Both the position numbers and the translations under genes were made by a program. Positions 3,808 to 5,347 of a stretch of 5,347 nt of DNA are shown here, one piece after another; the first letter of the stretch is position 1, and each line of letters starts with the position of its first letter. Below the pieces are notes generated by a model. That model was not told the origin of the DNA. It saw only the letters and a program-made list of their open reading frames with translations, and ran no database searches. The stretch lies in the IMG/VR virus record IMGVR_UViG_2778261462_000003; one strand, written 5' to 3'. Source of the stretch: a virus (lineage: Duplodnaviria > Heunggongvirae > Uroviricota > Caudoviricetes).

Positions 3808-3908
3808 ATACAGCGAACTCCATTGGTTTAGTTGGATATTTACTGTGCTGGACAAAAACGGTTTGCGGGGAAATCTTAGTTAAGTAGAATGACTGCGGGT
3901 GCTTGAGG

Positions 3909-3944
3909 CTATCTGCCTCGGGCATGGACACCAACGGCAGATAG
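3909..3944. repeat. Perfect 9-bp inverted repeat separated by 18 nt
   Basis: CTATCTGCC (3909-3917) and GGCAGATAG (3936-3944). The left arm overlaps a competing 5-bp stem, GAGGC (3905-3909) with GCCTC (3915-3919), so the two structures are mutually exclusive. Confidence 0.4.
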
Positions 3945-4037
3945 AGAAAAGCCCCAGTTAACATTACGCGTCCTGCAAGACGCTTAACATTAATCTGAGG
4001 CCAATTTCATGCTAGACACATGTAGGTTAGCCTCTTA

Positions 4038-4053
4038 CGTGCCGAAAGGCACG
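4038..4053 (+). other. Second GC-rich hairpin with GAAA tetraloop
   Basis: CGTGCC (4038-4043), GAAA (4044-4047), GGCACG (4048-4053). Same architecture as the hairpin at 2715-2730. Not followed by a T-tract. Confidence 0.3.
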
Positions 4054-4084
4054 GAGAAGCAGGCTATTGTTAACACCAAGCTGT

Positions 4085-4117
4085 AATGTCCCCTTTGAAC
4101 CATTCTAAAATGTCCCC
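4085..4117. repeat. Direct repeat AATGTCCCC (two copies, 24 bp apart) just upstream of the transposase; possible IS terminal or binding site
   Basis: AATGTCCCC at 4085-4093 and 4109-4117. No inverted copy (GGGGACATT) is present in 5261-5347. Confidence 0.3.
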
Positions 4118-4140
4118 AGACAATTCTCTGGGGGATTTTT
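4114..4140 (+). terminator. Terminator-like hairpin that sequesters the transposase ribosome-binding site
   Basis: CCCCAGA (4114-4120), loop caattc, TCTGGGG (4127-4133), then gATTTTT (T-run 4136-4140). The 3' arm contains GGGGGA (4130-4135), the only Shine-Dalgarno-like sequence for the ATG at 4142. Such folding is a known way IS elements block activation by read-through transcripts. Confidence 0.4.
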
Positions 4141-4141
4141 C

Positions 4142-5260
4142 ATGATCAAAGAGACTGTTACGATGAGTCATAAGGAACTCCACCGACTTCAGATTATTCA
4201 GGAACAAGCTGCGGCACGCATTGGCATTTCTATTCGGCAGGTTAAACGTCTGGTGCAACGGTATAGAAATGAAGGGCCTTCTGGTCTGGTTTCCCACCGA
4301 CGTGGAAAGCGTCCTAATAATTCCTTTTCTACTGAATTCAGAGCAACAGTAATTTCACTCCTCAAAGGCCGTTACGCTGATTTTGGACCTACGTTTGCGT
4401 GCGAAAAATTGCGCGAGATACACGGTTTATCTTTATCCGTTGAAACTCTCAGAAAGTGGATGATAGAAGAGGGGTTATGGCGTGAACGCCGTCGTAAAAT
4501 TGCCCGTATATATCAACGCCGCATGCGACGACCATCTTACGGTGAACTGATCCAGATTGATGGCTCACCTCATGACTGGTTTGAAAATCGAGGCCCCAGA
4601 TGTACACTGATCGTTTTCATTGATGATGCCACCAGTGCGTTGATGGCGTTGCGTTTTGTGCCTGCTGAAACAACCCGGGCTTACATGGAAACCCTCCGGG
4701 GTTACCTTAATGATCATGTCGTACCGCTCGCTCTCTACTCTGATAGACACAGTATATTCAGGGTAAATAACCCAGAGCGGGAAGGTGAGCTGACCCAGTT
4801 CACTCGTGCGATAAAGACACTGGGCATCGAGCCAATCCATGCCAACAGCCCGCAGGCAAAAGGGCGGGTAGAGCGCGCCAATCAGACACTACAGGACAGG
4901 CTGGTCAAAGAAATGCGGCTTCAGAATATCAGTGATATTGAAACAGCAAATGCATGGTTGCCGACCTTTATTGAAGCCTATAACAACCGGTTCGCTACGT
5001 CGCCTCGTACTACTGATAATGCTCATCTTGATGTGCACCATTCTGAAGAGGAACTGGGTTATATCTTCAGCCTACAGGCGAAGCGCGTTCTGTCTAAAAA
5101 TCTCACTTTCCAGTACAAAAGCAGTGCGTTTCAGGTACGCAGTGAGGGCCGGGGATATCGACTTAGGCATTCGGTTGTTACTGTATGCGAGAACTTTGAC
5201 GGTGAAATTAACGTTCTGTATGAACCGCCCCGGGTTTCCTGGAGAGTGTTTTATCTGTGA
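4142..5260 (+). CDS. DDE transposase with integrase-core (rve-like) catalytic domain, IS481/ISNCY-like
   Basis: 372-aa track ORF. N-terminal helix-turn-helix-like region (GISIRQVKRLVQRYRNEGPSGLVSHRRGKRPNN), then the catalytic triad in its usual contexts: IQIDGSPHDW, LALYSDRHSIF and KGRVERANQTLQDRL. Family assignment is from memory of ISNCY/IS481-type N-termini (MS.KEL.RL.IIQ...GLV..RGK.SN). The stop at 5258-5260 may be premature if homologs are longer. Confidence 0.75.
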   Translation: MIKETVTMSHKELHRLQIIQEQAAARIGISIRQVKRLVQRYRNEGPSGLVSHRRGKRPNNSFSTEFRATVISLLKGRYADFGPTFACEKLREIHGLSLSVETLRKWMIEEGLWRERRRKIARIYQRRMRRPSYGELIQIDGSPHDWFENRGPRCTLIVFIDDATSALMALRFVPAETTRAYMETLRGYLNDHVVPLALYSDRHSIFRVNNPEREGELTQFTRAIKTLGIEPIHANSPQAKGRVERANQTLQDRLVKEMRLQNISDIETANAWLPTFIEAYNNRFATSPRTTDNAHLDVHHSEEELGYIFSLQAKRVLSKNLTFQYKSSAFQVRSEGRGYRLRHSVVTVCENFDGEINVLYEPPRVSWRVFYL

Positions 5261-5347
5261 ACTCAGGCTGCCAGATCATCGTTTCCGATGGAAGCATAAT
5301 AAGCTTTTTCTGCTTCTGCCGGAGGAGTATGGCCCAGCCTTTCCAGC

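Follow-up and report, generated by a model that had tools for sequence, protein, structure and literature searches.

The stretch of viral DNA analyzed here (IMG/VR record IMGVR_UViG_2778261462_000003; 5,347 nucleotides (nt), referred to as the window) carries, in its last part, a complete leader of the hok/mok/sok type followed by a transposase gene that is cut off by a further insertion sequence (IS). NCBIfam model NF033594 identifies the open reading frame (ORF) as a transposase of the IS1202 family (ISNCY) with 449 bits against a cut-off of 250 (E 1e-134), and its DNA is 99.8% identical to intact 'ISEsa1 family' copies encoding 446 amino acids (aa), which carry the RefSeq name 'IS1202-like element ISEsa1 family transposase'. 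Examples of plasmids with an intact copy are NZ_CP057067.1 (Klebsiella) and NZ_AP018757.1 (Phytobacter). Directly upstream of this gene, a predicted RNA hairpin covers the Shine-Dalgarno (SD) sequence, and the hairpin together with its occurrence in related elements is the subject of this analysis.

Compared with intact copies, the window (Qin) copy lacks 27 nt, in frame, after position ~4197, corresponding to 9 aa of the N-terminal helix-turn-helix region; the deletion is flanked by the 13-nt direct repeats CAGATTATTCAGG and CATATTACTCAGG. In addition, an IS3-family element, found at a median of 3 places per E. coli genome having any, cuts the gene after codon ~360. On the truncated gene, Pfam rve_3 scores 24.7 bits, just below its cut-off of 26.5. 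The transposase gene in the window is a dead copy and, because it is broken by both the 27-nt deletion and the IS3-family insertion, the hairpin device found there is a fossil. At least 80% of window positions 3900-5347 is carried by 774 of 5426 genomes; judging from its gene order, K-12 may lack this left end.

The hairpin and the start codon of the transposase gene

The leader of the transposase gene coincides with the left end of the element. Since copies in unrelated contexts become identical at T4068, the start codon lies only 74 nt from the transposon tip. Upstream of ATG 4142, the sequence reads TCCCCAGA (4113-4120), CAATTC (4121-4126), TCTGGGGG (4127-4134), A4135, TTTTT (4136-4140) and a single C. 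The two arms form a core stem of seven Watson-Crick pairs, 4114-4120 with 4127-4133, plus a U4113·G4134 pair. In RNAfold predictions, the hairpin is present in both the minimum free energy and the centroid structure, where it is extended by an outer helix between AAAAU (4107-4111) and AUUUU (4135-4139). Predicted energies are -12.8 kcal/mol for 4113-4134 and -13.6 kcal/mol for 4107-4139 (overall range -12.8 to -14.1), and the predicted hairpin is unchanged within a 284-nt transcript beginning at the upstream hok leader. A scan for terminators ranked the hairpin 4113-4134 first in the window (8 pairs, 5 of them G-C, loop of 6, tail ATTTTTCATG); over the whole window, the scan gives 15 terminator-like sites, compared with 5.0 +/- 1.9 in shuffled sequences.

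The sequence GGGGGA is the top anti-SD match in the region -20 to -4 relative to ATG 4142 (TGGGGGA, -8.4 kcal/mol, spacer 6). All five G residues (4130-4134) are paired in the 3' arm of the core stem and A4135 is paired in the outer helix, placing the functional SD sequence of ATG 4142 inside a stable predicted helix, as in IS200-like SD-sequestering leader hairpins. The first-pass annotation of this DNA had described GGGGGA as the sole SD-like site for ATG 4142, located in the 3' arm of a 7-bp GC-rich stem followed by a T-run, and the sequence, the terminator scan and RNAfold all bear this out. The window holds one perfect hairpin of at least 7 bp with a 3-8 nt loop (2.1 +/- 1.8 in shuffles), and the chance of such a hairpin landing on the SD sequence is of the order of 1%.

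Annotations are split over the start codon. The Prokaryotic Genome Annotation Pipeline (PGAP) starts the Qin pseudogene at the equivalent of ATG 4163 (Met8) and the intact copies, in their longer 446-aa form, at the equivalent of ATG 4142. The ISfinder length of 439 aa for the ISEsa1 transposase, as quoted in the family description (PMC10132070), likewise implies a start at 4163. If translation began at Met8, the true ribosome site would be downstream of the hairpin, leaving the latter at most a terminator function, and the AAGGAG or GAGGAG found 9 nt before Met8 in distant relatives could be taken to favor this reading, which we nevertheless regard as highly improbable. In ISEsa1, the only candidate ribosome site upstream of ATG 4163 is AAAGAGA, whose hexamer AAAGAG reaches about -2.9 kcal/mol (the value from relative L021, which has the same hexamer) versus -8.4 kcal/mol for GGGGGA. 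Further, the codons preceding Met8 are conserved as coding sequence. Among 53 dereplicated relatives, the second base of codon 6, two before Met8, is an almost invariant T (entropy 0.14) flanked by fully variable bases, the encoded residue being I, L, V or F. The three-base periodicity of the 4142-4163 stretch equals that of a downstream coding control, and the open frame begins with an upstream ATG, GTG or TTG in 87 of 91 relatives. As the pattern of change in the seven additional codons among relatives is that of coding sequence, ATG 4142 is likely the start rather than ATG 4163, in disagreement with the alternative raised in the first-pass annotation, namely a true start at 4163 with a different ribosome-binding site. 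The ISEsa1 transposase would then be 446 aa long, not 439 aa as listed in PMC10132070. A first automatic rule had picked Met8 as the start in many relatives, where codons 3-4 (AAGGAG, GAGGAG) are SD-like; starts were then assigned with an upstream start required. The features of the region are collected in Table 1.

Table 1. Coordinates of the features in and around the transposase leader (window positions).
Feature	Position	Strand	Basis or remark
hok/mok/sok-type leader, complete	3897-4068	+	Rfam RF01794, 104.1 bits (gathering score 59), E 1e-24, model positions 1-157 of 157
mok-like reading frame, 25-aa ORF	4009-4086	+	Continues into the transposon, ending 21 nt short of the hairpin at a TAA within the first subterminal repeat
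Left copy of the 15-bp target-site duplication, GGAGAAGCAGGCTAT	4053-4067		Covers the SD of hok and the first two bases (AT) of its ATG
Left end of the IS1202-family element (TGTTAAC...), the whole 74-nt transposase leader	4068-4141	+	Point from which copies in unrelated contexts are identical
Outer subterminal repeat DR1, ACCAAGCTGTAATGTCCCC	4075-4093	+	Repeat search; conserved in relatives; inverted copy at the right end
Inner subterminal repeat DR2, ACCATTCTAAAATGTCCCC	4099-4117	+	3' half is the 5' arm of the hairpin; predicted anti-SD
Full hairpin	4107-4139	+	Outer helix 4107-4111/4135-4139, G4112 bulged, core 4113-4120/4127-4134, loop 4121-4126
Shine-Dalgarno sequence GGGGGA	4130-4135	+	6 nt before ATG 4142; predicted unpaired probability 0.07-0.12
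T-run, 5 T	4136-4140	+	Source of the terminator-like look; pairs with the A-tract in full-length RNA
Transposase gene, IS1202 family, ISEsa1-like, defective	4142-5223	+	NF033594; 27-nt deletion; IS interruption
Alternative ATG (Met8)	4163-4165	+	PGAP start of the Qin pseudogene, implied by the 439-aa entry; not taken as the main start
End of a multicopy IS3-family element, inserted in the transposase gene	5224-5347		Junction ambiguous within 5221-5223, shared TGA

Occlusion of the Shine-Dalgarno sequence in related leaders

To compare leaders across the family, 158 related loci from genomes and metagenomes were reduced to 69 dereplicated leaders less than 80% identical to each other, with start codons set by rule. 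Folding and duplex energies were calculated per lineage; a MAFFT alignment of ten enterobacterial leaders misregistered the arms between ISEsa1 and the relative L036. The mean predicted probability that the SD sequence is unpaired was 0.20 in the 69 leaders versus 0.34 in dinucleotide shuffles of the upstream leader. This probability fell below the leader's own shuffle mean in 59 of 69 cases and reached an empirical p of at most 0.05 in 17 (3.5 expected). The same pipeline applied to 40 neighboring non-transposase genes as a control yielded 0.42 versus 0.435 after shuffling, with 16 of 40 below the mean. The occlusion of the SD sequence by the hairpin, proposed in the first-pass annotation for this one leader, is thus in keeping with a predicted inaccessibility that extends across the family.

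The partner of the SD sequence is, in most cases, a repeat of the transposon end. Left ends contain a pair of subterminal repeats, DR1 and DR2, ~24 nt apart with the core AATGTC, which is kept in relatives down to ~45% protein identity. Both repeats are also present, inverted, at the true right end described below, and the left end aligns with the reverse complement of the right end. Judging from this arrangement, DR1 and DR2 are presumably transposase-binding sites. The right-end repeats read TGTCACC and TGTCATG, therefore the C-run of DR2 is not demanded by the repeat itself. In 43 of 67 leaders, the DR2 region is the main predicted partner of the SD sequence, and the DR2-SD duplex is more stable within its own lineage (-10.2 kcal/mol) than in cross-lineage mixes (-8.5 kcal/mol; permutation p 2e-4). 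The two partners co-vary: CCCC faces GGGGG(A) in ISEsa1, CCCCG faces CGGGG in L036, L039 and L095, where 12 continuous pairs are formed, CCCCUUUUG faces CAGGAGGGG in elements of Hahella and Chromatiales, and CCGC faces GCGGAUAUUU (CCGC/GCGG) in L129 and L147. Two relatives of the Chromatiales type, L032 and L106, have a single subterminal repeat and a leader shorter by ~24 nt, with the pairing of CCCCUUU/AGGAGGGG with the SD sequence kept. In Massilia elements, the SD sequence is hidden by a different hairpin that leaves DR2 unused. Since these elements reach the same outcome without DR2, occlusion itself would be the conserved trait.

The same arms could also be read at the level of DNA. The 3' arm and T-run would then constitute a third, inverted transposase-binding repeat (AAAATGTCCCCAGA compared with TCTGGGGGATTTT), through which bound transposase represses its own gene or shapes the synaptic complex, the RNA hairpin being incidental. 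The palindrome is indeed nearly perfect in ISEsa1 and reaches 12 of 12 positions with one G·U in L036, and arm sequences that change along with the repeat type are also what a shared binding specificity would give. We nevertheless consider this reading very unlikely. Most lineages are complementary only over the C-run and the following T residues and not over the conserved AATGT half, and some hide the SD sequence without DR2. The mismatches are mostly G·U on the sense strand, and in 52 of 66 leaders this strand gives the more stable fold (-13.5 versus -10.3 kcal/mol for the antisense strand), as expected of an RNA structure with G·U pairs and not of a DNA palindrome.

Several observations weigh against the role proposed below for the hairpin. 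For ISEsa1 alone, the fold is not statistically exceptional (z = -1.15 for 61 nt), and after shuffling of the ISEsa1 leader the G5 run is still hidden to nearly the same degree (empirical p 0.19 and 0.42) because this leader holds two C4 runs, beside which a G5 SD sequence would pair whether selected or not. Support from the single sequence is only modest, and the evidence beyond chance comes from the relatives. There, the family-wide p-values are inflated since the lineages are related and the values are not corrected for phylogeny; the core stem is weakened by one mismatch in the close relatives of the Scandinavium group, and relative L021 has lost the core stem together with the SD sequence. 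The U-tract, finally, is short and confined to the enterobacterial clade; in other leaders the stem leads straight into the start codon. The hairpin could also be seen as a by-product without selected function, a C-rich repeat and a G-rich SD sequence 10-30 nt apart always pairing, a reading which the weak z-score and the shuffled ISEsa1 leaders would fit. We judge it decidedly unlikely given the family-wide excess of occlusion over both shuffles and control genes. In addition, stem extensions past the core differ by clade (AGA/UCU, G/C, UUUUG/CAGGA), and SD variants match repeat variants, including the poor SD sequence GGCGGA facing CCGC. The leader is also invariant between diverged variants: comparing window positions 4068-4141 with L007, L009, L013, L015, L017 and L090, the 74-nt left end shows 0 of 74 differences between ISEsa1 variants whose coding sequences differ by 8.2%, and even the six loop bases are identical. 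Overall, the folding predictions support the view that pairing over the SD sequence has been maintained in evolution at the family level, without being significant for ISEsa1 alone.

With respect to termination, the stem, a loop within 3-8 nt and five T residues fit the consensus of an intrinsic terminator with a tract of only 5 U after an A, and the flanking A-tract and U-tract resemble a bidirectional terminator. From these sequence features, a terminator role is possible and plausible only for the enterobacterial clade including ISEsa1, and termination would not be the conserved function because the U-tract is short, preceded by an A and absent outside this clade. The suggestion of the first-pass annotation that transcripts reading in terminate at the hairpin therefore agrees with the consensus of stem, loop and T-run, and fails with regard to conservation of the U-tract outside the enterobacterial clade.

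Insertion into hok start codons and a larger transposon carrying relBE

The hok-type leader upstream of the transposase gene ends at the first base of the element, and the last three positions of the RF01794 model that it matches are AUG. By comparison with the R1 hok mRNA, this model would represent the hok mRNA 5' leader from the transcription start, with its AUG as the hok start codon; the mok-like frame is comparable to R1 mok. Another E. coli strain has this leader (98% identical) uninterrupted and directly adjoining hokD, and in locus L001 a copy of GGAGAAGCAGGCTAT also immediately precedes hokD, at the element's far right end. In 7 of 20 related loci scanned (L006, L010, L013, L016, L022, L024 and L039), a full hok leader with the orientation of the element extends up to the element's first base, and more relatives show the flank GGAGAAG...AT(G). 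Judging from these junctions, the start codon of hok-type toxin genes is the exact insertion site of the element, which usually has the same orientation as hok. Because of this position, transcripts reading into the element most likely start at the hok toxin promoter, and the transcripts that the first-pass annotation attributed to the prophage are, by location, specifically hok-leader transcripts. Incoming transcription would thus be built into the life cycle of the element, and the role of the hairpin is directly testable. No report was found in the literature on a connection between IS1202 and hok, on hok target specificity or on ISEsa1 regulation.

Based on its ends, the 1609-bp 'ISEsa1' is only the left part of a larger transposon with the arrangement left inverted repeat-transposase gene-variable cargo-(relB-relE)-right inverted repeat and a size of ~3.3 to 12.8 kb. 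This unit is seen in Qin (window 4053-4141 and L001 8387-8461), in a Phytobacter plasmid (L166 517-13372) and in a Klebsiella plasmid (L165 438-7533). The three insertions are independent, each with its own 15-bp duplication immediately 5' of the G of the hok ATG (GGAGAAGCAGGCTAT, GGAGAAGTCAGCTAT and GGAGAAAAAGGCTAT). Imperfect terminal inverted repeats combined with a 15-bp target duplication are in line with membership in the IS1202 family. In the Qin and Phytobacter copies, annotation places relBE just within the right end; at that place the Klebsiella copy has ISEc52 and no annotated relBE, although the sequence of its right end matches that of the other two. The cargo varies, from flxA-ydfV to genes for nickel and chromate resistance. 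On the Phytobacter IncF plasmid, ncrABCY (nickel) and chrBA (chromate) lie between the transposase gene and relBE (L166 2186-12523). An intact copy on a Salmonella IncI plasmid (NZ_CP030003.1; L005 1501-4185) is followed by flxA-like and ydfV genes and lies beside trbA of this conjugative plasmid. As L005 carries the same flxA-like/ydfV cargo as Qin, the Qin-type unit also travels on plasmids.

The right end as defined in ISfinder style (...GAGAAGCGGAC) was considered as the true end and rejected: no terminal inverted repeat is found there, and the real right end lies beyond relE. The published ISEsa1 entry, given in the family description as 1609 bp with inverted repeats of 15/22 and no target-site duplication (PMC10132070), appears to have its right end set wrongly. 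Insertion would also account for the gene order of Qin: the duplication would restore the hok SD sequence and ATG at the right end behind relBE, explaining the order relB-relE-hokD and the leaderless hokD, in front of which relBE stands because the element inserted in the hok start codon. Integration of relBE at hokD has been noted earlier (PMC6379469).

The right-end tip contains a perfect outward TTGACA (L001 8438-8446), and the left end contains TGTAAT at its positions 15-20 (window 4082-4087). By analogy with IS3-family circles, ends joined with a 3-bp spacer would form a near-consensus junction promoter, TTGACA-17-TGTAAT, whose transcript would still contain the whole hairpin. At the end of the conserved 'ISEsa1' block, where the cargo diverges, locus L003 (3090-3124) has a hairpin GTCCGC-TAAGAGCGAGAA-GCGGAC preceded by TAGCCT, which resembles the 3' part of a hok leader (TAGCCTCTTAC...GGAGAAGCAGGC) and is possibly the remnant of a nested hok target or a site of recombination.

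Proposed role of the hairpin and relation to known systems

We hypothesize, with somewhat better than even confidence, that the hairpin is the ISEsa1 version of an SD-hiding leader design common to a subgroup of the IS1202 family, restraining transposase production from hok read-through. The C-run of DR2 and the bases following it would pair with the G-rich SD sequence in the mRNA, any transcript containing DR2 would present a closed ribosome-binding site and little transposase would be made. Read-through from the hok promoter would be the most predictable incoming RNA, and the hairpin would keep it from yielding transposase. In the enterobacterial clade, the stem flanked by A-tract and U-tract may also stop some transcription as a weak, possibly bidirectional, intrinsic terminator.

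A selective fold-back of the IS10/IS50 type, the model favored in the first-pass annotation, would require a transposase promoter inside or after the 5' arm, freeing the SD sequence in the element's own mRNA so that only foreign read-through is closed and terminated. By eye, two candidates can be found. TAAAAT (4106-4111), within DR2, would direct a start at ~4118, just past the C-run, and a TAnAAT-like hexamer belongs to the conserved DR2 motif; TTGAAC (4096-4101) and GACAAT (4119-4124), separated by a 17-nt spacer, would direct a start at ~4131. However, a consensus scan, which a weak promoter could escape, detected no sigma-70-like promoter in the 74-nt left end 4068-4141. TAAAAT has no usable -35 element, the TTGAAC/GACAAT pair scores 8/12 and is not conserved in L036 or the Scandinavium relatives, and the resulting leaders would be only ~11-24 nt long. 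As both candidates are sub-threshold and not conserved, an IS10-style distinction between own and foreign transcripts is unsupported; we consider the model doubtful, and a promoter starting inside or beyond the hairpin, as expected in the first-pass annotation, remains a guess.

Beyond the proposed role in hok read-through, a more far-reaching version can be formulated, which we think unlikely. Here, the inner repeat would serve as an anti-Shine-Dalgarno throughout a large IS1202 subgroup and, in the hok-targeting relBE transposon, would gate the captured hok promoter from the transposase. The element would be promoterless and live off toxin-gene transcription, and translation would open only upon disturbance of the hairpin, for instance when the chimeric hok-leader RNA is processed, or once excision has joined the right-end TTGACA to the left-end TGTAAT.

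By analogy, the closest known systems are IS200 and then, by logic, IS10, and control of the proposed kind is already familiar. The arrangement had been called a classic IS self-restraint mechanism, and with an SD-hiding hairpin conserved in the transposase family both parallels are apt. Fold-back inhibition of read-through transcripts in IS10 and IS50 was reportedly described by Davis, Simons and Kleckner in 1985 and by Krebs and Reznikoff in 1986. As in these elements, a sequence near the end of ISEsa1 is predicted to pair with the transposase ribosome-binding site in transcripts entering from outside. In IS10 and IS50, however, a promoter downstream of the 5' arm lets the element's own mRNA escape, whereas the consensus scan detected none in the ISEsa1 left end.

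For the IS1202 family, Harmer and Hall (2023, PMC10132070) report, in the available part of their description, ends that begin with TGT, as in ISEsa1, strong specificity for dif/pdif sites in the ISAjo2 group, and target duplications that are short (5 bp, ISAjo2 group), ~16-17 bp or ~28 bp. The words hairpin, promoter, terminator and ribosome are absent from the same part, and leader structure is not treated there. ISEsa1 is listed there with 1609 bp and without target duplication, unlike the 15-bp duplication, the right end beyond relBE and the hok target found here. The hok context matters more than the hairpin itself, as the same analysis explains why relBE stands before a leaderless hokD in E. 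coli. ISPpu9 resembles ISEsa1 in that secondary structure in the 5'-untranslated region of the mRNA regulates transposase expression and differs from it in also using two small RNAs (PMC8450116).

In IS200, a stem-loop has been shown experimentally to sequester the SD sequence AAGGGGGU and to block 30S binding, and a rho-independent bidirectional terminator at the left end has been shown to protect the element from impinging transcription (PMC4513863). ISEsa1 shares with IS200 the stem-loop, here a predicted one, over a G-rich SD sequence (AAGGGGGU in IS200, GGGGGA in ISEsa1), and a terminator at its left end is plausible. IS200, however, has two separate hairpins and an HUH transposase, whereas ISEsa1, as known from predictions, would use one hairpin for both jobs. 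The IS1202 family would thereby join the transposable elements that restrain their transposase by hiding its ribosome-binding site, a modest gain, with a compact variant in which one arm of the helix, the 5' arm, is at the same time a subterminal repeat of the end of a putative DDE-type transposon.

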